Positions 4,071 through 55,198 of a DNA stretch of 64,000 nt are shown in pieces. A program made the translations under genes and the position numbers. The notes beneath the pieces were generated by a model. The model was not told the origin of the DNA, did not search any database, and was given only the letters and a program-made list of their open reading frames with translations. Source of the stretch: an uncultured delta proteobacterium (lineage in GTDB: Bacteria > Desulfobacterota > Desulfobacteria > Desulfobacterales > JAFDCJ01). The stretch spans positions 224,001 to 288,000 of the forward strand of contig CAVYNY010000009.1 in the NCBI GenBank assembly GCA_963769935.1, read 5' to 3'. Position 1 is the stretch's first letter, and every line of letters starts with the position of its first letter.

Positions 4071-5045
4071 CTATTTGCTATCCTGTATTTTTTCCGTCAG
4101 CACGGGAACAAATTCGAGCAAGTCCTGGACCACCCCCACATCGGCGACCTGAAAAATAGGGGCCTTCGGGTTTTTATTGACAGCCACGATAAAGGGGTTG
4201 CCCTTCAGACCGCCCAGATGCTGGAAGGAGCCGCTGATACCCAGCGCCAGATAAACCTTGGGTTTGACCGTCTTGCCGGAAGTTCCGACCTGCCGTGATT
4301 TCTCCAGCCATTTGGCATCCACAATCGGCCTTGAACAGGATACAACGGCACCCATGGCCCGGGCCAGCTCCTCGGCAATTTCAATATTATCCTGGTCCTC
4401 GATTCCTCGGCCGACTGAAACGAGAACATCCTCTTTGGTAATGTCGACATCACCGACTTCGGCGGCGACTATTTCAAGAAAACGCCGGCCGACGACAAGT
4501 TCGCCGACATCCGCCGACTTGTCCACCACCACGCCGCCGGCGGCACCGGCTTCATCCGGTTGAAATACACCCGGCCGAACATTGATCACCGCACCGGCCG
4601 ATATGTCACAGGTCGAATGCGTACTGACCTGCCCGCTGAATTCCTGCCGGACCACCTTGAGCCTGTCACCGTCCGCGCCCTCGAAAGCCACCACATCGGA
4701 TACGAAGACCGAATCCAGTTTAATCGAAAGCCCCGGGCCAAGATCCATACCAAAGGTATCATGGGCCAGGAGCAAAATGGCATCCGCAGGCAGAATGTTC
4801 ACCAGCAGTTTGCGTATGGCTTCGGCGTTGGGATAAGCCAGGGCTTCATTGCCGAATTTCCATACTTCTTTATAATTTGCCGCTACTTCATTGCAAACCG
4901 CATCGAGTTCGGATCCTGAACCGGTGACAATTGCCGTGACCGGTGCGTCCGGATAAATTTTCCCGGCCGCAACCACCAGCTCCCGGGCGGTATCATCGGC
5001 CTTGCCTGCTTTATGAGTAATATAAGCAAAAACCTGTCCGGCCAT
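4071..5045 (-). CDS. etfA: Electron transfer flavoprotein alpha subunit
   Basis: SVGRG, SRPIVD, QVGTSGKTVKPKVYLALGISGSFQH and NKNPKAPIF FAD-binding motifs. Confidence 0.97.
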   Translation of the reverse strand: MAGQVFAYITHKAGKADDTARELVVAAGKIYPDAPVTAIVTGSGSELDAVCNEVAANYKEVWKFGNEALAYPNAEAIRKLLVNILPADAILLLAHDTFGMDLGPGLSIKLDSVFVSDVVAFEGADGDRLKVVRQEFSGQVSTHSTCDISAGAVINVRPGVFQPDEAGAAGGVVVDKSADVGELVVGRRFLEIVAAEVGDVDITKEDVLVSVGRGIEDQDNIEIAEELARAMGAVVSCSRPIVDAKWLEKSRQVGTSGKTVKPKVYLALGISGSFQHLGGLKGNPFIVAVNKNPKAPIFQVADVGVVQDLLEFVPVLTEKIQDSK

Positions 5046-5836
5046 TATTTTATCCCTCCTTTGGCTTTTAAGAGTTCGATCAGCTTGTCGGCAATTTCTT
5101 CCAGGCTGCCTTCCAGTATTTCGGCACCCTCGCCGAGCTCGGGAACGAAATAGTCTACCCGCTGCACCCGGGCAGCGGCGGCTCCCACCGCATCAGCGCC
5201 CAGGCCAAGGTCGGAAGCCCCCCAGACGGGAATATCGACTGAGGCGACTTTGCGTATCCCGCGAATCCCGACATAACGCGGTTCATTAATACCGGTCTGA
5301 ATCGAGAGCACGCAGGGAAGGTCAATCTCGTTCATTTCCTGGTTGCCGCCCTCGATTTCGCGCCCGATCTTCAGCTTTTTATCATCCAGAACTTCAATGC
5401 GATTAACCACCGAGGCATAGGGTAGATCCAGCATGGCGGCCAACATTCCGCCGACCTGCCCGGCCCCGTCATCGGCCTGAGCACCGGTAAGGATCAAATC
5501 ATAGTTGCCCTTTTGGGCGGCCGCTTTGAGCATCGTGGCGGTCCCCTTGCCGTCCGCCCCCTCGAAGGCATCGTCGCTCAGCAGGAGCCCGTTGTTGGCA
5601 CCCATTGCCATTTCTCTTCTAACCACTTCTTCGGCTTCCTCATCGCCGACCGATACAACCGTCACTGATCCGCCCACTTTATCCACAATTTGAATGGCTT
5701 CTTCGACCGCATAATTGTCCCATTCGTTCACCGAATAAACGAGATCATCGCGCTCTATATCGCTGCCGGCGGCGGCAACTTCGATCTCGTTTTCGGCGGT
5801 ATCGGGAACTCTTTTGACACAGACCAGAATTTCCAT
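5045..5836 (-). CDS. etfB: Electron transfer flavoprotein beta subunit
   Basis: ILVCVKRVPD, NEWDNYAVEEA, GAQADDGAGQVG and NEPRY motifs; overlaps the etfA start. Confidence 0.97.
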   Translation of the reverse strand: MEILVCVKRVPDTAENEIEVAAAGSDIERDDLVYSVNEWDNYAVEEAIQIVDKVGGSVTVVSVGDEEAEEVVRREMAMGANNGLLLSDDAFEGADGKGTATMLKAAAQKGNYDLILTGAQADDGAGQVGGMLAAMLDLPYASVVNRIEVLDDKKLKIGREIEGGNQEMNEIDLPCVLSIQTGINEPRYVGIRGIRKVASVDIPVWGASDLGLGADAVGAAAARVQRVDYFVPELGEGAEILEGSLEEIADKLIELLKAKGGIK

Positions 5837-5876
5837 AACTTTCCCCCTAATTCATTTTATTAATTTTATTGAGATA

Positions 5877-7949
5877 CTATACCGTTACCAGATGCTCGGC
5901 AACAAGTTCACAAAGGTCAATGGCCTGCATTTCGCCCTCCAGGCCGGCGACTTTAATTGCATCTTCAATGTTCACCAGACAGAAGGGACAGGCGGTCACA
6001 ATCACATCGGCACCGGCCTTTTTGGCCATCTCAACCCGCAGCACTCCCATGCGCTGCTCTTCTTCGGGCTCATAAAACAGCATCAGGCCCCCGCCGCCGC
6101 AGCAAAAGGACCGATCCCGGCAGTTGCCCTCCATTTCGATTCGCTTTAATCCGGGGATGCTGTCAATCGCCGCCCGGGGCTCATCATAAAGGCTGTTGTG
6201 CCTTCCCAGATAGCAGGGATCGTGATAGACATAGGTCTTGCCGGCGTCTGCTACCTGCTTGAGGCGGATCTTCCCCGCATTCACATGGCGCACGATGGTC
6301 CGGCTGATATGCTCCACCGGCGGCAGGTCTTTATAGTCTTTTTTCAATGCATTATAGGCGTGCGGGTCGGCAGTGACAATGTTCTTGACGCCGGAGTTCA
6401 GAATCGCATCCGTATTCTGATTCTTTAAATTCTGGAAAAGCATTTCTTCGCCGAATCTTCGAACTTCGTGGCCGCTGTCTTTTTCGTCCTTGCCCAGAAT
6501 GCCGAAATCAATTCCGGCGGCGTTGAGTATCCGGGCGGTTGCCCGGGCGATTTCCTGCATGCGGTCATCATAAGAGGAGATGCTGTCCACAAAGTAAAGG
6601 GTATCGGCGGATTGGCCTTTTTCAAGTACTTTTACGGGACAGTCGGCGGCAATATCCTTGGCCCAGTCGGCCCGTTTGCGCTCCATTTTTCCCCAGGGAT
6701 TGCCGCGCTTTTCAAGCGCACCCAGCGGCTTCTGGAGTGACTGGGGCACCATGCCTTCATCCACCATGCCGCGCCTCAGATCCACCATTTTGTCGATGTA
6801 TTCAATTGCCAGCGGACACTCCTGCTCGCAGGCACCGCAGGTGGTGCAGGACCAGATCTCATCTTCACTGTAGATATCCCCGATCAGAGGCTTCGGCTCG
6901 CCGCCATTGCCGCCGATCCAGGGGTAGTGTTTAAACGCATAGTCGCGGCCTTTAATGGAAATAAACCGCGGTGAAAGGGGGCGGCCGGCGGCATTGGCCG
7001 GACAGCGGTCGGAGCATCTGCCGCAATCGGCGCAGGTGTAGAAATCCAGCATGTGCTTCCAGGTGAAATCCTCGAATACCTTCACGCCGAAGGATTCCAG
7101 ATCGTCCAGCTTTTCATCGTCAATCCCGTAGCGCACGGGTTTGACATTGCCGCGGTCAAGACGCATGAAAAATACATTGAAGATGGAAATAATCACATGG
7201 AAATGCTTGCCCATGGGCAAAAAGCACAGGAAAAAGAAAAAGGTGACTTCATGGATAAAGTAAGTCGTCGAATGCAACCTCTGCAGCGTTGCAAGCGAAG
7301 CCGTGCTGAAAAGGTGCTTGAAAACCCACACCAGCGTCAAAGGTGCCGTAAATTCGGCCTGCAGCCCTTTTTGAATTTGAGCCGCCGCCAGACTGGCTTC
7401 AAACATGCTTTCGCTTAAAACCAGGATCGCAATCAGGCCGAGCACCAAAAGGGCTTCCCACGTATGATCGTGTCCATAGCGGGGCGGCACGGCATAACGA
7501 GCCGGTTTTAAAATTCCCCGCCGAACGGCGGCAACGATAACGACTACCAGGACCCAGGTCGTCGCACAATCCTTTAAAACATTGTAAAATTCACCGAAGG
7601 CGCCGCTGAAGCCCGGCAAATGGAAACCATTCACAAAGCCGATGAACATCAGCTGGGTGGAACGGGCGCCGAGAATTAAAAAACCGGCAAAAAGAAGAAT
7701 ATGCACCACGCCGGCCGGCAGGTAGCGGGGGTGCCGCCATTGGGCCAGCCAAATTTTAAGGACCGACCGGATTCTTTCCGGGATCCGGTTGAAGCGGTCA
7801 TCCGGGGCGGCGCTTAGAAGCGGTGCAAGCCGTCGTGCCATAATATAGGCAAAGGTCCCGATGCCGATCAGCGGAATCAGGATATAAATTATATTGGCGG
7901 GAATACCAAAAATCGTGGCCGCAGCCGGCGAAATCAATACAGGTTCCAT
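5877..7949 (-). CDS. Membrane-bound Fe-S oxidoreductase (FadF/HdrF-like; putative ETF:menaquinone oxidoreductase)
   Basis: N-terminal TM region ending in KHFH, two CxxCxxCxxxCP motifs, C-terminal CCG domains (YHDPCYLGR, CCGGGG, TACPFC); lies between the acyl-CoA dehydrogenase and etfBA. Confidence 0.88.
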   Translation of the reverse strand: MEPVLISPAAATIFGIPANIIYILIPLIGIGTFAYIMARRLAPLLSAAPDDRFNRIPERIRSVLKIWLAQWRHPRYLPAGVVHILLFAGFLILGARSTQLMFIGFVNGFHLPGFSGAFGEFYNVLKDCATTWVLVVVIVAAVRRGILKPARYAVPPRYGHDHTWEALLVLGLIAILVLSESMFEASLAAAQIQKGLQAEFTAPLTLVWVFKHLFSTASLATLQRLHSTTYFIHEVTFFFFLCFLPMGKHFHVIISIFNVFFMRLDRGNVKPVRYGIDDEKLDDLESFGVKVFEDFTWKHMLDFYTCADCGRCSDRCPANAAGRPLSPRFISIKGRDYAFKHYPWIGGNGGEPKPLIGDIYSEDEIWSCTTCGACEQECPLAIEYIDKMVDLRRGMVDEGMVPQSLQKPLGALEKRGNPWGKMERKRADWAKDIAADCPVKVLEKGQSADTLYFVDSISSYDDRMQEIARATARILNAAGIDFGILGKDEKDSGHEVRRFGEEMLFQNLKNQNTDAILNSGVKNIVTADPHAYNALKKDYKDLPPVEHISRTIVRHVNAGKIRLKQVADAGKTYVYHDPCYLGRHNSLYDEPRAAIDSIPGLKRIEMEGNCRDRSFCCGGGGLMLFYEPEEEQRMGVLRVEMAKKAGADVIVTACPFCLVNIEDAIKVAGLEGEMQAIDLCELVAEHLVTV

Positions 7950-8114
7950 TTAATGATATCGATCTCCCTTTGATGAAATATTTGGTCAAACTAATCTCGA
8001 GCGCAAGTATCTTGCATATCATGAATAGGCCGTTCAGACAAGAGCCGTGTGTGACTGGCGATCAAATGCCGATATAATTGTCTGTCCGTACCTGAAATCA
8101 ACGGTCAGATAAAA

Positions 8115-8431
8115 AGCGCATAGCTCATAGCTGATAGCTGACACAAAGCAGCTGGATTGCTTGGAGGCTGGAAAGGTAAGAAGGTAGACAATGAATCTGC
8201 ATTTTTTATCGCAACCCGACTTCCACCACCCAAAAACCAAAATATAGTAATCCTATGTGCTCTGCTTGCTGTATTCTTCCTTCCGGCTCTCATTCCGCTT
8301 CCCAGCGTCCCAGCCTTTATCCTTTATCCTTTATCCTTTAACCTTTGTTCCTTTAACCTTTGTCCTCCTTTATCCTCAATTCAAACTCAATAAGCTTAAT
8401 AAACTATATCATCCAGCATCAAGCATCCAGT
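8115..8431. repeat. Intergenic cluster of 7/8/9-bp-period degenerate tandem repeats
   Basis: (AGCTSAT)n near 8120-8140; purine-rich 8-mers at 8150-8190 with pyrimidine-rich counterparts at 8275-8315; (CCTTTAW)n at 8314-8375; (ATCCAGC)-like units next to the stop at 8432. Confidence 0.8.
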
Positions 8432-10249
8432 CTATTTCCCCCCGAAGGCATCCTCCGAGATATCCACGGCGGCACTGTTGGTGGCCAGAATGGCATCCAT
8501 CTTGCCCAGTGTCACCGGCAGAATACAACTGGTAAAGAACTCGGTGCTTTTCAGCTGGCCCTCATAAAATGCCGCATCTTTTTTCTTGGCACCTTCATCC
8601 AGCCTTGCGGCGGCAATGGTGGCGCGCCACAGCAGCAGCCAGGCCAGGATCACATCCCCAGAGACCTCCATGAACGGATAGGCGTGCGCAAATGCGGCCA
8701 TTACCTTGGGCGACATAGCGGTTTTGCCCAGGTGCAGGGCAACTTCACCCAGTTTATTCAAGGCTGCCTCCACCTTGCCGGCAAAATCTTCAACCCGGGC
8801 ATTGGTCTTGCCGGCAGCGATGGTTTTCTGGATTTCACCCATCAGATCCATGATCGGTTTGCCCTTGTTCATACCGAGTTTGCGGCCCAGAAGATCCATA
8901 GCCTGGATGCCGTTGGTTCCCTCGTAAATGGGAGTGATCCGGCAGTCCCGCAGCAGCTGTTCCATGGGATATTCCTTGATATAGCCGTACCCGCCGAAAA
9001 TCTGAACACCCAGGTTGCAGACATCGAAGGCCCGGTCGGACACATAGCCTTTGGCCACCGGTATCAACAGATCGATGATACCCTGATATTTGGCTTTTTC
9101 CTCTTCGCTGTCCGTAACATGCAATTTATCTTCGCACATGCCGACATAATAGATCAGGCTGCGCATGCCTTCCACGTAAGATTTCATCGTCAGCAGCATC
9201 CGCCGGACATCCGGGTGCTGAATGATCGGAACCGAAGGCGCGCTTTTATCCATCATATTTAACAGATGCCGTCCCTGCACCCGCTGTCTGGCATAATTAA
9301 TCGCATGCATGTAGGCCGCACTGGCACAGGCAAAGGCCTGGATACCCACCAGCAGACGCGCCTCGTTCATCATCAGAAACATGGATCGCATCCCTTTGTT
9401 TTCTTCCCCCAGGAGCAGCCCCCGGCATTTCCCTTTGCTGCCCAGAGACATTGCGCAGGTGGCGTTGCCGTGAATTCCCATTTTCTCCTCGACTCCCGTG
9501 CAGACCACGTCGTTGGGCTCTCCCAGACTCCCGTCGTCGTTGACCCGGATCTTGGGCACGATAAACAGGGATATGCCCGAAGTGCCCTGCGGTGCACCTT
9601 CAATGCGCGCCAGTACCGGATGAATAATGTTTTCGGCCAGATCATGCTCGCCGGAGGAAATAAAAATCTTGCTGCCCGTGATCGAATAGCTCCCGTCATC
9701 ATTTTTAACCGCACTGGTCGTCAACGCCCCTACATCGGATCCCGCCTCAGGTTCGGTCAGCAGCATGGTGCCGGTCCATTCTCCGGTATACATTTTCTTC
9801 AAAAACAGCGCCTTCTGCGCCTCTGTTCCAAAAGCCTCGACCAGTTTGCCGGCCCCATGCGTCAACCCCGCATACATCATAAAAGCAAAATTCGCCCCGT
9901 TCATGTAGTCACTGGCCGCCAGGGCGACGGCCCGCGGCATACCCTGTCCGCCCCATTGCGGATCTTCGATCATGGCCAGCCATTCGCCTTCTTTGAACAG
10001 TTCCCAGGCCTTGTGGAAGGACTCGGGAACCGTCACGCTTCCGTTTTCAAAGTGCGCGCCCTCCCGGTCCCCTTCCGCCTGCGTGGGCAAAATCTCTTTG
10101 ACAGCCAGGTTGCGGGCTTCGGATACGATGAGATCTACGGTTTTTCTGTTGAATTCGGCAAACCTGTCATGCTTGCTCAATTCCTCGACCTGCAGCTGGT
10201 CGTAGAGGACAAAGTCAACATCCCTGCGATCTGCAATTTGCTGTGCCAT
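8432..10249 (-). CDS. Acyl-CoA dehydrogenase (long, ~600 aa type)
   Basis: GTMLLTEPEAGSDVG, ITGSKIFIS, EEKMGIHGNATC, QIFGGYGY and IYEGTNGIQAMDLLGRK motifs. Confidence 0.96.
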   Translation of the reverse strand: MAQQIADRRDVDFVLYDQLQVEELSKHDRFAEFNRKTVDLIVSEARNLAVKEILPTQAEGDREGAHFENGSVTVPESFHKAWELFKEGEWLAMIEDPQWGGQGMPRAVALAASDYMNGANFAFMMYAGLTHGAGKLVEAFGTEAQKALFLKKMYTGEWTGTMLLTEPEAGSDVGALTTSAVKNDDGSYSITGSKIFISSGEHDLAENIIHPVLARIEGAPQGTSGISLFIVPKIRVNDDGSLGEPNDVVCTGVEEKMGIHGNATCAMSLGSKGKCRGLLLGEENKGMRSMFLMMNEARLLVGIQAFACASAAYMHAINYARQRVQGRHLLNMMDKSAPSVPIIQHPDVRRMLLTMKSYVEGMRSLIYYVGMCEDKLHVTDSEEEKAKYQGIIDLLIPVAKGYVSDRAFDVCNLGVQIFGGYGYIKEYPMEQLLRDCRITPIYEGTNGIQAMDLLGRKLGMNKGKPIMDLMGEIQKTIAAGKTNARVEDFAGKVEAALNKLGEVALHLGKTAMSPKVMAAFAHAYPFMEVSGDVILAWLLLWRATIAAARLDEGAKKKDAAFYEGQLKSTEFFTSCILPVTLGKMDAILATNSAAVDISEDAFGGK

Positions 10250-10268
10250 TTTTTGTCTCTCCTTTTCT

Positions 10269-10904
10269 TTATGCTTTCTTTAACTCGGCGGTCCCGATGC
10301 CTCTAATAAAAAGATCAACCAGCGGATCCGCCATCGAAACCAGGTCATACTCTTTTTCCGAATGCAGCCAGGTGTTGATCACTTCATCGACAGCCCCCAG
10401 AATAAATCGCTTTACCAGACCGACATAGAGATCTTTGCGAATGCGGCCCTCCTGCTGACCCAATTCCACAATTTCCGATATCAGGTCCTGGTACATCTGG
10501 GACATCTCTCTGATCTGCGATTCGGCCAGGCGGCTGTTCTGGTGGGTTTCCACCTGATATACCACCGCCATGTCCCGGTCCCGCTGGAATTCCGTCAGAT
10601 GCCGCCGGATGAGGTTGCGCAGTTTGTTCAGGCTGGTGTCCGCTTTCCTGACCTCGGCCCGGAACCGATCAAATACCTGCTTGGTCCTGTAGCTGAAAAA
10701 TTGCACCAGAATGTCATCTTTATTTTTGAAGTAAAGATAGATGGTGCCGTCCGCCACACCGGCTTCTTTAGCGATCTGGGCGACGGTCGACTGATAAAAA
10801 CCCTGCCGGGCGAATACTTTTACCGCCGCTTCCAGAATGAGATGGTATTTGTTATTTTTGTTGTTTTTATTGATTTCGACCTCCCTACTCCCAGATGTCG
10901 GCAT
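10269..10904 (-). CDS. fadR: TetR-family regulator, FadR(YsiA)-like
   Basis: TetR HTH (ILEAAVKVFARQGFYQSTVAQIAKEAGVADGTIYLYFKNKDDIL); heads a beta-oxidation/ETF operon; matching operator lies upstream. Confidence 0.85.
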   Translation of the reverse strand: MPTSGSREVEINKNNKNNKYHLILEAAVKVFARQGFYQSTVAQIAKEAGVADGTIYLYFKNKDDILVQFFSYRTKQVFDRFRAEVRKADTSLNKLRNLIRRHLTEFQRDRDMAVVYQVETHQNSRLAESQIREMSQMYQDLISEIVELGQQEGRIRKDLYVGLVKRFILGAVDEVINTWLHSEKEYDLVSMADPLVDLFIRGIGTAELKKA

Positions 10905-43324: not shown

Positions 43325-44251
43325 TCATTCCACCTTGGGTCGCGGCAGTACCTGGGCGAGCTCGGCAATTTCCGGTACCCGGTGCTCCCACTCGATGGCC
43401 ATCAGATGTACACCGGCGATGCCCTTCATTTCTTTGAACTCTTCGATCTGCTCACAGGCGATTTTGATGCCTTCGTCGGCAGCCTTGCCTTTGCCGGCGG
43501 CCTGCAGCCTTTTAATGATGGCTTCGGGTACGTCCATGCCGGGAACCTTGGATTGCATGTATCTGGCCATGCCGACGCTTTTCATCGGTGTCACACCGGC
43601 CAGGATATAAATTTTTTCGGTCAGTCCCATGTCGTTGGCTTGCTTGACCCATTCCCGGAATTTTTCCATGTTGTAGATGCACTGGGTCTGGATAAAATCC
43701 GTTCCGGCCTCGACTTTTTTTGCCAGGCGATGCACGCGCCAGCGAAAGGGCTCGGCAAAAGGATTGGCGGCCGCCCCGATAAAAATTTTAGGGGGTTCGA
43801 CAATGTCTTCGCCGCTCAAAAACTTGCCCTCATCCCGCATGCGCTTGACCATCTGGATCAACTGCATGGAATCAAGGTCAAAGACGCTTTTGGCGGTCGG
43901 ATGATCCCCAAACTGCTGGTGGTCGCCTGAAAGACACAGCATGTTGCGGATACCATGGGCATAGGCCCCCAGGATATCACTTTGCATGGCCAAACGGTTG
44001 CGATCCCGGCACACCATCTGGTAGTTGGGCTCCAGGCCTTCCTGCACCAGGATAAGTGAAGCCGCCCAGCTTGACATGCGCACGACGGAAGTCTGGTTAT
44101 CTGTGATGTTGACCGAATCCACGTTTCCCTTTAAATAGGAAGCCTTTTTCCGAACCTCGTCCGCGCTGGTTCCGCGCGGCGGTCCTAATTCACCGGTAAA
44201 TGCAAAATGTCCCGCATTTAAGACCTTTTCCAGATTACTGCCTGATTTCAT
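43325..44251 (-). CDS. metF: Methylenetetrahydrofolate reductase (MetF, acetogen-type), copy 1
   Basis: TGELGPPRG, NITDNQ, CRDRNRLAMQSDILGA, LCLSGDH and KKVEAGTDFIQTQ motifs. Confidence 0.95.
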   Translation of the reverse strand: MKSGSNLEKVLNAGHFAFTGELGPPRGTSADEVRKKASYLKGNVDSVNITDNQTSVVRMSSWAASLILVQEGLEPNYQMVCRDRNRLAMQSDILGAYAHGIRNMLCLSGDHQQFGDHPTAKSVFDLDSMQLIQMVKRMRDEGKFLSGEDIVEPPKIFIGAAANPFAEPFRWRVHRLAKKVEAGTDFIQTQCIYNMEKFREWVKQANDMGLTEKIYILAGVTPMKSVGMARYMQSKVPGMDVPEAIIKRLQAAGKGKAADEGIKIACEQIEEFKEMKGIAGVHLMAIEWEHRVPEIAELAQVLPRPKVE

Positions 44252-44279: not shown

Positions 44280-44961
44280 TTATTTTGCGGCCGCCTTTTC
44301 CGGTTTCTTATAGCCGGGTTGAATCAAGGTGCGCGGCACCTGATTTTGCCAATCAACCGCCGGAGTAATTTTTAAAATACAGTCCAGCCGGCCCTGCCTT
44401 TCCAGACGCTCATAGATCATATACCAGGCGCAAGGCTGATCCGGGTTGATTTCACAGCTGCCCTGGTTGGTTCCGCCGCACGGTCCGTTGTAGAGGCCCT
44501 TGGCGCACATGGTGACCGGACAGATCCCGGCGGTCTGCCCCAACACGCAACTGCTGCAGGAGCGGCACCTTTCTTCATACCACCCCACTGCCTGGTTGAC
44601 CGCCAGACCGCAGGTGTCGACGGCGGGATAAACCGGAACATCCGGGAATCTCTCCGCCAGAAACTGAATACCGACGCCGCAGGCCATCGAGATGACGGCT
44701 TCATAGTCTTTGACCAGATCATCCAGCTCGGCCAGATATTCGCGGTCGCACTGTCTTTCAACCGTTTTGGCGCCGACCTCGATGGGGTTGTCTTTCAGCC
44801 TGCGGGCCATATCCAATTCGGCATTCAAGACATCGACTTCTTTCTCGCCGCCTGCCAGGCAGACGGCGACACAGGTTCCGCATCCGACGGTCAGAACCTT
44901 CTTGTAGGGCGTTAAGCAGACCCATTATCTCTTCAAAAGGTTTTCTTTTGGCAACTATCAT
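44280..44961 (-). CDS. metV: MetV (MTHFR Fe-S/Zn subunit), +1 insertion at ~44908
   Basis: MIVAKRKPFEEI..., then shifted YKKVLTVGCGTCVAVCLAGGEKEV, ERQCD, MACGVG, CRSCSSC...CPVTMCAKGLYNGPCGG...CAW; span is 3n+1. Confidence 0.9.
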
Positions 44962-45040: not shown

Positions 45041-46360
45041 CTACATGGCCATTTCGGGATGAAAGACCAAGACGTCTTTAAGATCGTCTCCCAGATAGGT
45101 CCTTTCGTTCGGTCCCAGTATTCCCATTGAGAGGCAGAGGAGGGTCCAGATGTGGACCACTGAATAACCTCCGCCGAAATGCTCGCTGAGCTCATGAATC
45201 TGAGCGTGGCAGTTATGGCAGCCGGCAACGCAGTAGCCCGCGCCGGTTTTCTGGATCTGCTCATCCTTGAGCCGGCCGAATTGCAGACGCTGCTCTTTGA
45301 AACCGGCCTGGAGGAATCCGCCGCCGCCGCCGCAACAATAATTGTTGGACCTGTTGGGCTCCATATCGATAAAATTTTCTTCGCCTACAATGGATTTGAT
45401 CACAAATCGCAAATCCTCGGCAATCGGGTCCCCATAGGTCTTGCGCACGATCTGACAAGGGTCCTGAACCGTAAATTTGACCTTCAAATCCTTGTTCCAG
45501 TCGGAATTGACCTTCAGCTTGCCCTCGCGAATCCATTTGGCATAGTATTCATAGATGTTCTTGACGACAAAGTTATGCTCGATGTTGAATTTTTTCAGTC
45601 CTGCCAGGACTGAGAAGGTGACGTGCCCTCACTCGGTGTTGAGATAGACCTTGCAGCCGAGATCATCGGCCTGTTTGGCCGTGGTGCGGGTGATGTGCTC
45701 CCAGGCCTCATTGTCGGAAAGAAACATGCAGTAGTTCTCGCCGCCCCATCCTTTGCTGCCGTATGTCCAGTCGACCCCGGCCGCATGCAGGATCTTCCAG
45801 AGCGGAACCATTTCATCGGGTTCGGTGACCGGCTCCCTGGAATTCTGGTTCAAAAAGAATTCAGCGCCCTGCTTATCGATGGGAGCCTCCATGTCTTTAA
45901 ACTCGGGCTGGGCCTCGCGGTATTCCTCCAGAACGTCTTCCACCACGAATTGAAAATCCTCCGGGCTCGCTCCCATGGCGCTGCAGCTGTCATTTTTCAG
46001 CGCCATGTCGCAGGAGCCCAGGATGCCCTTGGGACGCTCCTCCCGGGGGCGCATGCCGCGGACATTGTAAACCAGCTGCGGTATATCAATTTTCATGGGA
46101 CAAACATAAATGCAGCGCTGGCACATGGTGCACATCCAGGGCCAGTCCGACTTCAGAATTTCCTCGTCCATCCCGAGCGCCGCCATGCGCAGGAATTTGC
46201 GGGGGTCCAGCCCTTCCAGACCCGTCGCCGGGCAGCCGGAAGAACAAGCCCCGCAGGTGAGGCACAAGTTCAGATTGCCGCCGTCGGGCAGCACCTTTTT
46301 GACCGCATCCAATAATGTGCTTTTTTTCTTGGCTCCCAGCACTAGGATATCCTCTTTCAT
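45041..46360 (-). CDS. HdrD-like Fe-S/CCG-domain oxidoreductase, predicted selenoprotein (Sec244), 439 aa
   Basis: Two CxxCxxCxxxCP motifs; in-frame TGA at 45631-45629 in YLNTE-U-GH; frame continues without stops into QDPC, CCGGGGG and GCHNC. Confidence 0.9.
45595..45613 (-). promoter_or_regulatory. SECIS-like hairpin (HdrD-like gene)
   Basis: UCAGUCCU-GGC-AGGACUGA perfect 8-bp stem starting at +16 after the UGA. Confidence 0.85.
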
Positions 46361-46806
46361 AATTCTTTTCCTCTTTTATCCGTTTTGGGTATTTTTCTAT
46401 GGTTTAAAGGGTTCGGTCCCAGGGACCGGATCAGATCCGCCATCTCTTTGGCATAGGCTGCAAAAGTAGGGCCTTCCCCGGATGATAGATTGTACATCCG
46501 GACCCGCTCGCCTTCCAGACCGATTTCTTCGAGCAGCATCTTTACGTGCGCCACCCGCTCCCTGGCTCTAAAATTGCCTTCATTATAATGACAGGTGCCT
46601 TCCAGACACCCGACCACATACACACCGTCGGCACCCTGCTGGATGGCCCGCAGCAAGTGCCTCACATCCACTTTCCCGGTACACGGGATTCTGATAATTT
46701 TTACGTTCGAAGGGTATTGAAGTCGCATGGAACCTGCCAGGTCCGCGGCTGAATACCCTCAATAATCACAGCAAAAAGCTATGATGTTGGGTTCAAATTC
46801 GGTCAT
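46357..46806 (-). CDS. mvhD: MvhD/FrhD-family [2Fe-2S] subunit, predicted selenoprotein (Sec16), 149 aa
   Basis: ATG 46806 after GGAGG: MTEFEPNIIAFCCDY-U-GYSAADLAGSMRLQYP (TGA 46761-46759); then PCTGKVD and GADGVYVVGCLEGTCHY. Confidence 0.93.
46730..46744 (-). promoter_or_regulatory. SECIS-like hairpin (mvhD)
   Basis: GGACCU-GGC-AGGUUC stem starting at +15 after the UGA. Confidence 0.75.
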
Positions 46807-46808
46807 CA

Positions 46809-49800
46809 CTATCCTCCTGCCAGCAAGGCATCAATTTTACACATAATCTGCTCATCTTCGTAAAAACTCAGGCTGATCGCCTCCCGCGGGCAAACGCTGG
46901 CACATATGCCGCAGCCATGGCAAATGGCATCGTCGATTTCAACAACGCCTTCATCGGAATTGAAGGCCGGCACCTGAAAAGGACACGACCTGACACAGGT
47001 CAGACATTTCACGCAGTGTTCCGCATCGACCTTGGCGGTAATGGCCGAAAGCTTGATTTCCGGTTTGGCCAGGAAGGTTGCGGCCCGCGAGGCCGCGGCC
47101 TGGGCCTGGGCGATGGATTCTGAAATCAGCTTGGGGCCGTGGGCGGTGCCGCACAAAAATATACCATCTCCCGGCATGTCAACCGGACGCAGTTTGACAT
47201 GGGCTTCAATGAAAAATCCCTCCGGGTTGCGGTTCAGCTTCATGATGCGGCTCAATTCTTCCGTGTCTTCGGCCACCACGCCGGCGCTCAACGCCAGCAG
47301 ATCGGCCCGGATCGCCAGATTGCGCTGCAGGATGTGATCCTTGACGGACACCGTCAAGCCTTCCGAATCCTCCATGACCTGCGGCGCAGCTTCCGGGGTA
47401 AATCGAATAAAAATAACCCCTAGCTGCCTGGCCTCCTTGTAGTAATCCTCCAGCAGTCCGTAGGTTCGCATATCGCGGTACAGAATATAAATCTGGGCCT
47501 CCGGATTGAGTTTTTTAATCGCCAGGGCGTTTTTGACGGCCGACTGGCAGCAGATGCGCGAACAATTCTCATTTTTTTCGTTGCGCGATCCCACGCACTG
47601 AATCATCACGACGCTGGCCAGATCCCCAGCGCCCTTTTCCGCAAGCCGATCGCTCAATTCCAGCTGGGTGACCACCCGTTCGCTTTCCGCATAAAGATAT
47701 TCCTGGGGCCGGTACTCCCGGGCGCCGGTAGCCACGATAATCACCCCGTGATTGATGCTGATTTCCTTAGCGTCGGCCCCCACGGCCAGATGGGTTGAAA
47801 AATTCCCCTTGTAGCCGCCGAAGGCGGTAATCCCGGCCTCGGTTAAGACTTCAATCTTGGCGTGCGCCTGCACCCCGGCGATGAGTTCCTGCAGATAGGC
47901 ACGGATATCAGCGCCTTCGATGGTGTGATGCAGACGGGCGGCCAGGCCGCCGAGCTGCTTTTCCTTTTCCACCAGCACGACGTCAAAACCCTGATTACCC
48001 AGACCCAGGGCGGCGTTCATCCCCGCGATGCCGCCGCCGATCACCAGCGCCCGCTGTTGCACGGGAATGACCTTCTCCCGGAGCGGCTTCAATGCCGCCG
48101 CGCGGGCCACCGACATCCGCACCAGATCCTTGGCCTTGGTGGTCGCCTCCGGCTTGGTCTGGGAATGAACCCAGGAATCCTGATTGCGGATATTGGCCAT
48201 TTCAAAAAGGTATTTGTTCAACCCGCAGGCTTCCAGGGTTTCCATGAACATCGGTTCATGGGTCTTGGGACTGCAGGAGGCCACGACCACCCGATTCAGC
48301 TGATGCTCCAGGATTTTTTCCTTTATTTTATCCTGGGTATCCTGGCTGCAGGTAAAAAGATTCTCATCCGCATAGACCACATGGGGCAGCCCCTCGGCAT
48401 AAGCCCTGACGGACGGCACATCGACCACCCCGCCGATGTTGATGCCGCAGTTGCAGACAAATACACCGATGCGCGGCGCTTGTTCGGAAACGTCAACTTC
48501 TTCCGGAACCTCAACCTTTTCGGTTTCCGTGCCCCGGGCTGCGGCCAGATGGCCGCCGGCCGCACAGGCGGCGGCACTGGCTTCGGTCACGGCGCCCGGA
48601 ATATCTTTGGGCCCCTGAAATAACCCGCAGGTATAAATGCCGGGACGCGATGTGGACACCGGTGCAAACGGGCGGGTGGCAACAAAATTGTATTTGTTCA
48701 GTTCGATGCCCAGGCGCCGGGCCAGTTCGACCGAACTTTGGGCAATGCCCAACCCTACCGAAAGCACCACCATGCTGAAAGTTTCTTCCGCCTGGCTGCC
48801 GTCCTCATCCACGTACTTGACCAGCAGGTCGCCGGTTTCAGGAATTTCGGAAATGGTATGAATGCGGGATTTGGAGAACCGCACGCCCTCTTTGTCTTTG
48901 GCCCTCAGGTAGTACTTCTCGTAGTCCTTGCCGAAGGTCCGGATATCCATGTTAAAAATAACACAGTCCAGCTCGCCGTGGGCGTGTTCCTTGGCAATCA
49001 TGGCTTCTTTGATCGCATACATGCAGCAGACCGAGGAGCAGTAACCGTTGCCGCAGCGATTGGTATCCCGCGACCCGACACATTGCAGCCAGGCGATTTT
49101 TTTGGGCGCTTCCCGGTCCAGCGGCCGCATCAAATGACCGAAATACGGTCCCGAAGCGCTTAGAATTCTCTCGAATTCCTCGCTGGTGACCACGTTGGCG
49201 TATTTGCCGTAGCCGAGAAAATCAAGGCCGGAAGGATCATAGCCCTCGCTGCCGGCGGATAGAACGACCGAGCCGACCCTGAGGCTGGTTTCGCGTTGGG
49301 TGTCATCGTAGGATACGGCCTTGGCCAGACACATATTTTCACACAGACCGCAGCCGATGCAAATCTCCGGATCAATGGCAAATGCCAGCGGAACGGCCTG
49401 GGGATATTCGATATAGGTCGCCCGCCGGTCATCCAGTCCCTTGTTATAGGAATTGACGGCCGTCACCGGACAGTGCCGCGCGCAATCGCCGCATCCGGTG
49501 CATTTGGCCACATCGATATAGCGGGGATGATTGGTCAGAGTGACCGTGAAATCGCCGGGCTCACCCTCGACGGCGGTTACCTCGCTGTTGGTAATGATTT
49601 CGATATTCAAGTGCCGGCCGACCTCGACCAGTTTGGGCGAGATCACTCACATGGCACAGTCGTTGGTGGGAAACGTCTTGTCCAGCCGCGCCATCATGCC
49701 GCCGATCGTAGGCGACTTTTCGACCAGATACACCTTGTATTCCGAGTTGGCCAGGTCCAGAGCCGCCTGCATGCCGGCGATCCCGGCCCCCACCACCATG

Positions 49801-49835
49801 ACCGAACCGCTTGTTATTCCTTTTTCCGATCCCAT
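46809..49835 (-). CDS. hdrA: Large heterodisulfide reductase subunit A-like flavoprotein, predicted selenoprotein (Sec63), 1008 aa
   Basis: GAGIAG...[25 protein letters not shown] (TGA 49649-49647); ferredoxin motifs, QCVGSR...CSSVCCM, second GGGIAG FAD motif, C-terminal 2x[4Fe-4S]. Confidence 0.95.
49614..49631 (-). promoter_or_regulatory. SECIS-like hairpin (hdrA)
   Basis: CUGGUCG-AGGU-CGGCCGG starting at +16; identical in both hdrA paralogs. Confidence 0.85.
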
Positions 49836-49844
49836 GAACACTCC

Positions 49845-50594
49845 TTATAATACCGAAAAAACAGGTTTGCTGTCTTCCATTGCCTCGAAGGCAACCCTGT
49901 TTGTCTTTTCCAGATCCGCGAGCAGATAAGACACCCGTTTGAGCGCCAGCCCCGTGCTCCGGCTGATTTCCCTGACGGATCGGTTTCCCGTTTTAACCGC
50001 TGCGTATATGAGATTCTTGTGATACTCCCTCTCCAGAACCGAATCCATTATGGTTTCATAAGAGTCCGTATCCCATTTGCGCCCGTAAACATCACCCCGG
50101 GCGGTTATTTTCAGTTCTTTGCTCACCAGCCAGCGCAGATTCTCGGCACTGACGGTCATGAGGGCTGCTTCCAACTGCAGGGCGAAGGCCTGGACATCCA
50201 GAGCGCCCTGCTCCCTGACGGATTCGGTGACCTCGGTGGCGATCTGAGCAAAACGCTGGGCCTCGGCCGATGAAACCCACGCCAGATGAAGCCGGTCCCG
50301 CCCGATTCCAGTCAGATCCAGCAGGTTGCGGGTTAATCGGATCTTTTTGTCGGCGTATACATTACCCTCCAGGTAATGGCAGTCACCGATGTGTCAGCCG
50401 GCCACCAGCACGCCGTCGGCGCCCTCCCGCAATGCATTGACAATGAAGACGGGGTCAACCCGTCCCGAGCACATGACCCGGATGGTTCTCAGGTTGCTGG
50501 GATACTGCAACCGGGAAACACCGGCCAGATCCGCACCGGCGTATGCACACCAGTTGCACAGAAACGCAACAATTTTAGGTTCAAAATCGGACAT
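49845..50594 (-). CDS. mvhD: MvhD-family protein with C-terminal extension (winged-HTH-like), predicted selenoprotein (Sec67), 249 aa
   Basis: [39 protein letters not shown] (TGA 50396-50394), WVSSAE; frame continues to 49845 with [24 protein letters not shown]. Confidence 0.92.
50360..50378 (-). promoter_or_regulatory. SECIS-like hairpin (long mvhD)
   Basis: CAUUACC-UGGAG-GGUAAUG perfect 7-bp stem starting at +16. Confidence 0.85.
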
Positions 50595-50670
50595 ACTTTT
50601 ATCCTTTGGTACCTTCAGAGCTATTTAATGCAAAAAAATATTATTGGGCTATTTTCCTTATTTTCAAGTG

Positions 50671-50841
50671 ATTGAAAATTGTCGATTGAATATTGAATAT
50701 TTAAGGTACGCCTTTGGCGGATCCATTTTTATTAAAACGACTTGTCAAAGAATGGTGGAACGACCCCCGGCGCTTGAACCACATGTAGATACGCAAGCGA
50801 CTTCCACAAATATTCAATTTTCAATCTTCAATATTCAATTT
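50671..50841. repeat. Inverted 7-bp-period repeat element (ATTGAAD)n...(HTTCAAT)n inside the hdr operon
   Basis: Arms at 50671-50702 and 50808-50841; same family as 62050..62258. Confidence 0.85.
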
Positions 50842-50842
50842 C

Positions 50843-53800
50843 CTATCCCGCCTTTACCGAACACACCGCCGCCATGATCTGCTGATCCCGGAAATGCAGC
50901 ATATCGATGGCCTTTTTGGGGCAGCTGGACGCACACAGGCCGCAGCCTTTGCAGGAAGCCGATATGTTCCGGGCGCGGTAGCCTTTGCCCTCAACCTCTT
51001 CCAGTTCGATGGCCCCGAACGGGCACACTTCGACGCACAAACCGCAGCCGATGCATTGGTCGGCATCGACTTTTGAAACCAGGGGCGAAACCGAAATGGC
51101 GGATTTGGCCAGAACCGTCGCGGCGCGGCCGGCAGCGGCCATGGCCTGGGAAATCGATTCATCAATGGGTTTGGGATAATGTGCCAAACCACAGACAAAC
51201 AGTCCGTCGGAGGCAAAATCCACCGGCCTCAGCTTGGCATGTGCCTCCATAAAGAAATTATCCGCATTGACCGGCAGCTTGTAAAAAGCCGCCAGCCGGC
51301 TGTTTTCCGTCGGAACAATGGCCGTTGCCAGGTTGATCACATCGGCTTTAATCAGCACCTTCCGTTGCAAAATCGGATCGAAAACCCGCACTTCGAGTCC
51401 GCCGTCCGTCTCGGACACAGTCGGTTTGTTGTCCAGGTTGTAGCGGATAAAAATAACGCCTTTGGCCCGGGCTTCTTTGTAAAGGGCCTCCCGTTCCCCG
51501 AACGTGCGGATGTCGCGATGCAAAATATATACGTTCGCATCGGGGTGCCGGTCCTTGACGGCAATGGCCTGGGAAACGGATGTCGTACAGCATATTCTGG
51601 AACAGTAGGGCCGTTGCTCGTCGCGGGAGCCCACACACTGGATGAACACAACATTGGAAGCGTCATTCAGCAGTTCAGGATGATGGTCGAGTTCATGCCA
51701 GCGCAGCACCCTTGGATTTTGGCCGTATAGATATTCAGCCGTAGCGGAAGCCTCCGCCCCCGTGGCAATCACCACTGCTCCGTGCCGGACGACGCGGGTC
51801 AAATTGCCGGATGCCACCTGGGTTTCAAAATTACCCACGAATCCCTTGGCATTGGCCACCTCGGCATTGAGGAATACTTCAACATCCGGGTGATTTTGCA
51901 CGTCGGCGATCAAATCGTCCAAAAACGTCCGAACGTCCCGACCGCGCCAGGTGGCGGTAATATCCCGTGCGGCGCCGCCCAGTTCGGCTGAACGTTCGAT
52001 AAGAACCGCCGGAAAGCCCTGGTCGGCAAGACTGAGAGCGGCGGTCATTCCGGCGACACCGCCGCCGATGACCAGCGCCGTCTTGTTGACGTCCACCGAA
52101 ATATCCGGAATCGGCTCCAGCAGCGCCGCGCGGGCCGCCGCCATCCGCACGAGATCTTTGGCTTTGGCGGTGGCGGCGTCATGATCGCCGGAATGCACCC
52201 AGGTGCACTGGTTGCGGATATTGGCCATGTCGAACAAATAGGCATTTACGCCGGCATTGCGGATGGTCTCCTGGAACAGCGGTTCGTGGGTTCGGGGGGT
52301 GCAGGCGGCCACCACAATCCGATTTAATTTTTGTTTACGAATAATTTCCACCATTTTCTCCTGCGTATCCTGACTGCAGGAAAAAAGGTTTTCTTCCGCG
52401 TGAACCACATAAGGCAGGCCGGCGGCATATTCCGTAATCGCCGGAACATCGGCGATCCCGCCGATATTGATCCCGCAGTTGCAGACAAAGACCCCGATCC
52501 GCGGCGGCTCACCGCTGACGTCCTTTTCGGCGGGAAACTGCTTTTCCTTGACAAGGGTTCCGCGCGCCGACGACAGCGCCAGGCCGGCACTGCAGGCGGC
52601 GGCACTGGCCTCCATCACGGACTGGGGAATGTCCTTGCAGCCCTGGATCACACCGGCAACGTAAATCCCGGGCCGTGAGGTGGCCACCGGGCGCACATCG
52701 TCGGTTTTCACGAAATTATAGTGATTGAGCTCAATTCCCAGGTTTTGGGCCACCTCGACCGCCGAATCGGCGGGCTCCATGCCCACGGACAGCACGACCA
52801 TGTCAAAATCTTCCGTTATTCTCCGGCCGTCATCGGTGACGTACTCCAGGCTCAGGGTACCGCTCTCATCAGCCTGGGTGATGGTGTGGACCTTGGAACA
52901 AATAAAGCGGACGCCGCCGGCCTTAGCCCGGTCGTAATAGCGCTCGAAATCCTTGCCGTGGGTCCGCATATCCATATAAAATATGCTTCCCTGAAATCCG
53001 GCCGCCAGATGCTCCCCGGCGATGACCGCCTCCTTGATCGCATACATACAGCAAACTGAAGAACAGTACTCATTGTCGCATTTGTTCTGATCGCGGGAGC
53101 CGACACACTGCAGCCAGGCGATTTTAGCGGGCGGCCTGCCGTCGGAAGGCCGTAGCACGTGGCCGCCCGTCGGCCCGCCGGCCGAGAGAATTCTTTCAAA
53201 TTCCATACTGGTCACGACGTTGGCAAGTCGGGCGTACTGATAATTGTCGAAGGCGGAAGGATCGAAGGTTTTAAAACCGGCGGTAACGATGACGGACCCG
53301 ACATTGAGGGAAATTTCCTCCTCTTTGTCATCAAAATTAACGGCACCGGTCGGGCAGATTTTTTGGCACGCGCCGCATTTGCCTTTTTTAAGAAAAATAC
53401 ACCGGTCCGGATCGATCACATATTTAAGGGGCACGGCCTGGGCATAGGGGACATAAATAGCCTTGCGCTTGCTGATCCCCTTGTTGAATTCATCGGCGGT
53501 CTTGGCCGGACATTTTTCAGCACAGGCGCCGCAGGCAATGCACTTGTCCAAATCTACGTAGCGGGGCGACCTCTTTATCTTAGCGGTGAAATTGCCCTCT
53601 TCCCCCTGGATGGCGGTAAGTTTTGAAAGCGTGAGAAGTTCGATGTTCAGATGCCGGCCGACCTCGACCAGTTTGGGCGAAATAATTCACATTGAACAGT
53701 CGTTGGTCGGAAAGGTCTTGTCCAGTTGCGCCATGGCACCGCCGATGGCCGCCGATTCCTCGACCAGGTATACGTAGTAGCCGGAATCAGCCAGGTCCAG

Positions 53801-53875
53801 GGCTGCCTGCATCCCGCTGATGCCGCCGCCGAGAACCAGCACCGATCCGATTGTGACCGCATTGTCCTTTTTCAT
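50843..53875 (-). CDS. hdrA: Large heterodisulfide reductase subunit A-like flavoprotein, predicted selenoprotein (Sec63), 1010 aa
   Basis: GGGISG...[25 protein letters not shown] (TGA 53689-53687); open frame into ORF 50843..53551; same domain order as 46809..49835. Confidence 0.95.
53654..53671 (-). promoter_or_regulatory. SECIS-like hairpin (hdrA)
   Basis: CUGGUCG-AGGU-CGGCCGG starting at +16 after the UGA. Confidence 0.85.
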
Positions 53876-54265: not shown

Positions 54266-55198
54266 ATGAGTGTAAAGACACCGAGCAAACTTGAAAAGAT
54301 TCTGAGTGAAGGCCATTTGGCCGTGACTTCCGAATGCGGACCTCCCCGGGGCAGCGATCCGGAGACAATCATCAAAAAAGCCGAGCTGATTAAAAACCAT
54401 GTGGACGCCATCAATATTACCGACAATCAAACGTCGGTCACTCGCCTGTGCAGCCTGGCCGCCTGTATCCGTTTGAAACTGCTGGGGCTCGAACCGGTTT
54501 TGCAGATGGTGACCCGCGACCGCAATCGCATCGCACTGCAAAGCGACATCCTGGGAGCCGCCTCGTTTGATATTCACAATATCCTGTGTCTGTCCGGCGA
54601 CCACCAGAGTTTCGGTGATTGCGCTCAGGGCCGGAATGTTCACGATATAGACTCCATGCAGCTGATTCAGACGGTGCGACATATGCGCGATGAGGGCAAA
54701 TTTCTCGGCGGCGACGAGATCAAACGGCCGCCGCAAATGTTTGTGGGGGCGGCCGCCAATCCGTTTGCCGATCCATTTGAAATCCGCGTTCCCCGGCTGG
54801 CCAAAAAAATCGCCGCCGGCGCGGAATTCATCCAGACCCAGTGTATTTACAACCTGGACAAATTTGAAGAATGGATGCGGCAGGTCCGCGACCGGGGTCT
54901 GCACGAAAAAGTTTACATTATGGCCGGACTGACTCCCATAAAGAATGTCGGCATGGCCAGGTACATGAAAAAGCGCGTACCCGGCATGGATGTGCCCGAT
55001 GAAATCGTGGACCGGCTGGCCGGCACGCCCAAAGAAAAGCAGGCTGAAGAGGGAATCAAAATTTGCATCGAATCCATTCAGCGCCTCAAAGAGGTGGAAG
55101 GTGTGTCCGGCTTTCATATCATGGCCATCGAATGGGAAGAAAAAGTGCCCGAAATAGTAGAAGCCGCCGGTCTCTATCCCCGGCTTAAGCTTGATTGA
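54266..55198 (+). CDS. metF: Methylenetetrahydrofolate reductase (MetF), copy 2
   Basis: TSECGPPRG, NITDNQ, TRDRNRIALQSDILGA, LCLSGDH and AGAEFIQTQ motifs; start MSVKTP after AAGGA. Confidence 0.95.
   Translation: MSVKTPSKLEKILSEGHLAVTSECGPPRGSDPETIIKKAELIKNHVDAINITDNQTSVTRLCSLAACIRLKLLGLEPVLQMVTRDRNRIALQSDILGAASFDIHNILCLSGDHQSFGDCAQGRNVHDIDSMQLIQTVRHMRDEGKFLGGDEIKRPPQMFVGAAANPFADPFEIRVPRLAKKIAAGAEFIQTQCIYNLDKFEEWMRQVRDRGLHEKVYIMAGLTPIKNVGMARYMKKRVPGMDVPDEIVDRLAGTPKEKQAEEGIKICIESIQRLKEVEGVSGFHIMAIEWEEKVPEIVEAAGLYPRLKLD

Follow-up and report, generated by a model that had tools for sequence, protein, structure and literature searches.

Five in-frame UGA codons of a desulfobacterial hdrA-mvhD operon are followed by probable SECIS elements whose register appears to be set by gene family

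SelB grips the loop of the bacterial selenocysteine insertion sequence (SECIS) through its C-terminal winged-helix domains. The E. coli element is known for an 11-nt spacing rule, and the effect of spacing on selenocysteine (Sec) insertion has been studied mostly on E. coli fdhF. In bacteria, Sec insertion is directed by a stem-loop just 3′ of the UGA with an apical G 16–37 nt away (PMC13188914, PMC10778597), and the bSECISearch model (Zhang and Gladyshev 2005, as summarised in the available text of the same two sources) describes a 3–9 nt loop, a 4–16 bp stem, a minimum free energy (MFE) of ≤ −7.5 and, 16–37 nt from the UGA, a G at the first or second loop position with G or U directly after it. 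HdrA, MvhD/FrhD and the 'UGH' Fe-S oxidoreductase (HdrD) are listed selenoproteins (PMC13188914 Table 1; PMC1976440), and deltaproteobacterial clustering of Sec-encoding hdrA and mvhD is known, with hdrA/hdrL/hdrD/mvhD in Desulfobacterium autotrophicum (PMC2702500). For Group 4 [NiFeSe] hydrogenases, an apical G is reported in all Sec forms, mostly gone in Cys relatives and placed at particular codon positions (PMC13582414); that study deals with other proteins and, in its available text, contains no comparison of registers within one genome. Here we describe five hairpins in a minus-strand operon on a 64,000-nt stretch (the window) of an uncultured delta proteobacterium (assembly GCA_963769935.1, contig CAVYNY010000009.1). 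Judged from sequence, they are very probably ordinary bacterial SECIS elements that would recruit SelB with Sec-tRNA, with a register (the distance from UGA to apical G) that follows the gene family and not a rule of the lineage.

The operon runs hdrA1-mvhD1-hdrA2-mvhD2-CCG gene-metV-metF, with a second metF divergent and upstream; several genomes of the genus keep this order. From hdrA1 to the CCG gene, every gene holds one in-frame UGA, at a position occupied by Cys in homologues. Their features, in window coordinates, are:

50843..53875, minus strand: hdrA1, 1010-aa HdrA-like flavoprotein, UGA at codon 63 in DCSM-U (CxxU); NF040770 at 980 bits, below the cut-off of 1100
53687..53689 (first base 53689), minus strand: in-frame UGA of hdrA1
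53654..53671, minus strand: predicted SECIS hairpin of hdrA1, +16 to +33, GG at 53663/53662
49845..50594, minus strand: mvhD1, MvhD (PF02662) with C-terminal extension, UGA at codon 67 (C-site), N-site Cys
50394..50396 (first base 50396), minus strand: in-frame UGA of mvhD1
50360..50378, minus strand: predicted SECIS hairpin of mvhD1, +16 to +34
46809..49835, minus strand: hdrA2, 1008-aa HdrA-like paralog, UGA in DCAM-U
49647..49649 (first base 49649), minus strand: in-frame UGA of hdrA2
49614..49631, minus strand: predicted SECIS hairpin of hdrA2, identical to that of hdrA1
49612-49640 and 53652-53680, minus strand: 29-nt run common to hdrA1 and hdrA2
46357..46806, minus strand: mvhD2, MvhD with UGA at the N-site (CCDY-U), C-site Cys
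46759..46761 (first base 46761), minus strand: in-frame UGA of mvhD2
46712..46758, minus strand: predicted SECIS of mvhD2, upper hairpin 46730-46744 (GG at +21/22) atop a long lower stem that extends as far as the UGA
45041..46360, minus strand: CCG gene, 439-aa Fe-S/CCG oxidoreductase (HdrD/TmcB/HmcF-like), UGA at codon 244 in TE-U-GH
45629..45631 (first base 45631), minus strand: in-frame UGA of the CCG gene
45595..45613, minus strand: predicted SECIS hairpin of the CCG gene, +16 to +34, covarying across the phylum

The geometry given in a preliminary description of this DNA was recovered exactly: in four of the five genes the stem starts at +16 and GG falls at +24/+25 (CUGGUCG-AGGU-CGGCCGG in both hdrA genes, CAUUACC-UGGAG-GGUAAUG in another), and the mvhD2 hairpin (GGACCU-GGC-AGGUUC) places GG at +21/+22. 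Loops of 3–5 nt (AGGU, AGGU, (U)GGA(G), GGC and GGC) sit on stems of 6–8 bp at 20–23 nt from the UGA, and the +1 to +40 segments fold at −10.2, −9.3, −12.9, −8.8 and −12.7 kcal/mol. All five elements fit the loop, stem, loop-G, distance and MFE terms of the bSECIS model and lie 3′ of a UGA at a conserved Cys/Sec position, which bears out their description as SECIS-type hairpins with an apical G; the Rfam SECIS families gave 0 matches in the window at gathering score. Relative to that model nothing in this genome differs in kind, the range being narrower (+18 to +27) with a 3-nt preference. They resemble the E. coli fdhF SECIS in the short upper stem and the apical GG/GU inside the open reading frame (ORF), and in mvhD2 also in the long lower stem, but lie 2–5 nt further downstream and lack the bulged U. 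The proteins share with the known Sec families the Sec positions (CxxU; either MvhD site; UGH) and the hdrA-mvhD clustering; they differ in that five are gathered in one operon with metVF and in that the 1010-aa hdrA1 product falls below the NCBIfam HdrA cut-offs and is therefore called HdrA-like only.

These hairpins are selected. Sec sites were sought genome-wide through coding potential and Cys/UGA pairs, with 40 candidate loci checked against NCBIfam and 45 sites kept. A filter for a perfect stem of ≥5 bp and a loop opening G-G or G-U at +18 to +28 found a hairpin after 37 of the 45 Sec sites, a figure that is optimistic because the +18 to +28 range was set after the registers had been viewed and the sites were picked by hand, a few with the hairpin already in view. 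The corresponding counts were 12/1,220 for UGA, 19/1,203 for UAA and 9/724 for UAG stops, and 101/4,000 for Cys codons; the comparison with true UGA stops that had been proposed earlier thus found such hairpins rare after ordinary stops. When the downstream sequence was recoded synonymously (2,000 trials), an equally stable G-loop hairpin arose in 0.25–1.3% of trials at the four +24 sites. The ordinary UGA that ends mvhD2 (46357-46359, overlapping the next start codon) is without a G-loop hairpin.

The 45 sites comprise FdhA, HdrA ×5, MvhD ×5, SelD ×2, RnfB, MsrA, Prx, AhpD, HesB, PrdB, UGSC, HUGP and others. One gene for an ExtI-like porin (L022, G000:C17:28977, plus strand) has an in-frame UGA with a strong G+22 hairpin (−14.2), and ExtI was not seen in the 119-family table of PMC13188914 in its available text. 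Two identical MGMT genes (G000:C10:5736 and C15:113260) carry UGA at the active-site Cys, with an upper stem of only 4 bp; the second copy was excluded from the 45, as were other read-through candidates. Loci L023, L034, L037 and L039-L043 were not counted either, belonging to no known Sec family or having the UGA away from a conserved Cys.

Comparison of Sec and Cys homologues ties the hairpins to the UGA. The HdrA pattern, in which the peptide was fixed, returned at least 124 stretches from GTDB genomes (labels were available for 80 of 124 matches, and those of metagenome-assembled genomes may be wrong). Among the matches listed, to which all HdrA statements here refer, 108 of 109 UGA forms match a 17-nt core exactly, as against 0 of the 15 Cys forms. 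Cys homologues that encode the same peptide show variation at all wobble positions, whereas the UGA forms are invariant there and vary freely at wobble positions outside the stem. The identical element occurs in genomes labelled Desulfobacteraceae, Syntrophobacteraceae, Desulfomonilaceae, Desulfohalobiaceae and Dethiobacter. The 29-nt identity noted earlier between the two hdrA paralogs holds as their longest exact match (the next is 17 nt), in genes whose proteins are 54% identical and use the same codon at only 266 of 531 identical residues; within this run, invariance across taxa covers only +16 to +33, and wobble positions +9 and +12 are free to vary.

For MvhD, the C-site hairpin was present in 7/7 UGA forms and 0/21 Cys forms, and all 26 N-site UGA forms of one genus share an invariant 15-nt core, with the +21 register fixed in the same 26 genes, 16 of them from a second paralog clade. 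The window supplies a reciprocal control, each mvhD gene being without a matching hairpin at its own Cys site. For the CCG gene, the search pattern parsed 22 of 30 loci (20 UGA, 2 Cys), and a G at +24 with a hairpin was found in 20/20 UGA forms versus 0/2 Cys forms. Four of eight stem pairs are altered on both sides, and 95.4% of cells are paired, against 81.6% after shuffling (reached in 0 of 500 shuffles) and at most 46% when the register is slid. The start of the stem exactly at +16 stands for the four operon genes but not as a conserved feature: among the 20 CCG orthologues it drifts over +15 (5), +16 (8) and +17 (7), while the G stays at +24.

Several results weigh against this reading, beyond the post hoc range and the hand-made site list. 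Eight of the 45 Sec sites have no hairpin passing the filter. The HdrA evidence consists of invariance without compensatory change and comes from a search that fixed the peptide. At the MvhD N-site only 16/26 orthologues pass the hairpin filter, Cys forms in the phylum show a G-loop hairpin in 8/30 (3 at +21), 5.2% of synonymous recodings match the mvhD2 +21 hairpin, and the isolated mvhD2 upper stem reaches only −4.5 kcal/mol, the +21 element being the weakest; the mvhD2 element is real yet the least cleanly supported of the five. Related sequences are not independent, so p-values are overstated. Last, selA is frameshifted twice in the assembly.

A lineage-specific SECIS rule, with the stem at +16 and GG at +24/+25 and with mvhD2 deviating deliberately so as to tune subunit ratios when selenium is scarce, had been proposed from the operon itself. 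In its favour, more genes have the G at +24 than at any other single position (12/37), and six unrelated family-sites have it there. Over 28 family-sites (one doubtful +28 call, MvhD on C22, excluded), however, the apical G lies at +18 in 2, +19 in 4, +20 in 2, +21 in 6, +22 in 2, +23 in 1, +24 in 6, +25 in 2 and +27 in 3, so that by family +21 is as common as +24; it is also the register of both SelD genes, MsrA, an AhpD, CoA-disulfide reductase and a Prx-like gene, all outside the Hdr-MvhD complex. Both FdhA genes of this genome carry GG at +19/20, the register of E. coli fdhF (NC_000913.3), and the HdrA element is shared, among the matches listed, by distant families; a G at +24 also recurs in CCG and MvhD genes across the phylum, so that the geometry is not confined to this lineage. 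The strict geometry holds at 10/45 Sec sites and misses 35 (0/1,220 long-ORF UGA stops, 3/4,000 Cys and 5/4,000 Trp codons also fit it). Used as a genome-wide scan for further selenoproteins, as had been suggested, it fitted 134 of 281,604 TGA triplets, of which 10 were Sec sites already known and none led to a new selenoprotein. Among the 134, C1:20865 is probably an ordinary stop; its 269-codon ORF was too short for the control set. Relaxing the rule and adding a coding filter yielded 173 matches, with no recognisable new family among those listed. The lineage-specific rule is thereby refuted. As for tuning, the weaker upper stem of mvhD2 and the long lower stem beneath it could make for a different efficiency; nothing singles mvhD2 out, since +21 is fixed across 26/26 N-site genes, another paralog clade included, and the proposal is unsupported. 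Taken together, the rule with its tuned exception is quite unlikely.

A further alternative would trace the shared geometry and the 29 identical nt to protein conservation and codon bias instead of to selection on RNA structure. Folding energy alone is indeed not significant at three of the five sites (z of −0.36 for hdrA1, −0.45 for mvhD1 and −0.84 for hdrA2; the mvhD2 element with its lower stem gives −3.1), and the peptide predisposes the MvhD N-site to a hairpin. The scarcity of the four +24 hairpins among recodings, the wobble variation of HdrA Cys forms against invariant UGA forms and the compensatory changes in the CCG stem leave this explanation largely refuted, and we regard it as the least probable of all. 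It is hardly more probable that the hairpins are SECIS-like but some UGAs are read as Cys through a tRNA-ReC (SelC*) system like that of PMC13582414, whose available text places such tRNAs in some Desulfobacterota genomes. The broken selA would suit such a system. The sole tRNA-Sec match above the Rfam cut-off (150 of 1,213 candidates scored) has a UCA anticodon and a G discriminator; no second tRNA-Sec-like tRNA with a U discriminator passed the cut-off among the same candidates, which were scored without a dedicated tRNA-ReC model, and a low-threshold ARAGORN scan gave only noise. One selB scores above cut-off, complete with winged-helix domains, and two SelD genes, both Sec-containing at +21, are present; the host thus holds selA, selB, selC and selD sequences. 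All 21 relatives with a selA match have an intact copy. In this assembly frameshifts interrupt selA and the two tuf copies on a single contig (G000:C22:678107-679262, 721234-722131 and 736650-737823), which points to indel errors in the assembly. A tRNA-Pyl lies at C11:285724-285797.

Under the preferred explanation, ordinary SECIS elements with a register per family, the apical G would recruit SelB with Sec-tRNA, and each UGA would be read as Sec in HdrA, MvhD and the HdrD-like Fe-S protein. A single SelB would accept an apical G at about +18 to +27 with a stem starting at ≥ +10, outside the ribosome, and one factor probably serves all registers because one selB lies above cut-off. Free hdrA2 RNA favours an alternative fold that hides the loop; a ribosome covering roughly the first 10 nt would free the hairpin from this competitor. 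Across distant genomes each gene family keeps its register, whereas families inside one genome differ in theirs, and the apical G stands at a wobble (third codon) position in 17/28 family-sites (binomial p 0.0075). We infer that register is set per family by the encoded peptide, wobble positions being favoured: as the hairpin is itself coding sequence, each family would settle on a register that its peptide permits, usually a wobble-position G with another G opening the codon after it (+18, +21, +24, +27). On these terms +24 would recur in three unrelated families as one of two equally common solutions, mvhD2 using the other, and the HdrA element would be frozen because the peptide LVEVGR allows almost no other pairing-preserving codons. 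Neither the within-genome 3-nt preference nor the frozen HdrA core was found in the literature searched, which comprised part of the main texts; the supplements of PMC1976440 and PMC13582414 could list such registers.

The elements are of a known kind and their importance is modest. They support five selenoprotein annotations that standard gene callers truncate, the 17-nt HdrA core is a usable marker that separates Sec and Cys alleles near-perfectly among the matches listed, and some 45 SECIS elements under one SelB form a natural series for testing spacing against Sec insertion. It is conceivable, if improbable, that register is a graded code in which one SelB reads 3-nt steps (+18, +21, +24, +27), register and stem strength rank the ~45 selenoproteins for scarce selenium, and the HdrA element in the first gene acts by polarity as a selenium checkpoint for the Hdr-MvhD-MetVF operon. 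Such a spacing-coded hierarchy, if true, would link mRNA structure to selenium allocation.

Outside the window, a Group 1 [NiFe]-hydrogenase large subunit (G000:C20:530763-532412, plus strand; L069:6764-8413) has UGA at the second Cys of its N-terminal RxCGxC, aligned to residue 84 of PDB 1h2a, and an all-Cys C-terminal motif; a bridging role of the aligned residue is described in PMC13582414. The UGA recurs in 22/22 close matches (21 genus genomes) and in five other families, and a +16/G+24 hairpin follows it in 31/31 UGA forms and 0/23 Cys forms. In a quick tree the Sec forms fall inside one supported clade with Cys forms interspersed; the hydrogenase of L083 is UxxU. An N-terminal Sec hydrogenase of Group 1 is not in the 119-family table of PMC13188914 in its available text; N-terminal CxxU has been reported in Group 4, with two Group 1 cases cited from Baltazar 2011 (PMC13582414). 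Engineered C79U Hyd-1 retained 13% activity.

The remaining genes of the neighbourhood are context only:

44280..44957, minus strand: metV-like gene (PF12225), no Sec, frameshifted near 44910 in the assembly
43331..44251, minus strand: metF (MTHFR, PF02219), last gene of the operon
54266..55198, plus strand: second metF, divergent from hdrA1

Judged by gene context, an electron-bifurcating Hdr/MvhD module that serves MetVF is the likely product of the operon. Contigs from four RNA runs of one study, which carry neither expression level nor strand, cover the operon, and those that reach across the UGAs and hairpins of the CCG gene and mvhD2 are unchanged at these sites. The metV frameshift at window position 44910 is likely an assembly error because the RNA contigs of three of the four runs have one base fewer there. 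Certain RNA contigs, which probably derive from related organisms, differ at both window positions 45602 and 45606, so that the CCG hairpin closes its loop with G-C in place of U-A. A second paralog of the CCG gene (G000:C41:1755-2530) has lost the Sec region through an in-frame internal deletion. Elsewhere in the window, an ABC substrate-binding protein gene (PF00496; 23099-24770) is broken into two overlapping ORFs, and positions 4074-10904 hold TetR, acyl-CoA dehydrogenase, a 690-aa CCG/Fe-S protein and ETF alpha/beta, a cluster that resembles hdrF-etfAB.

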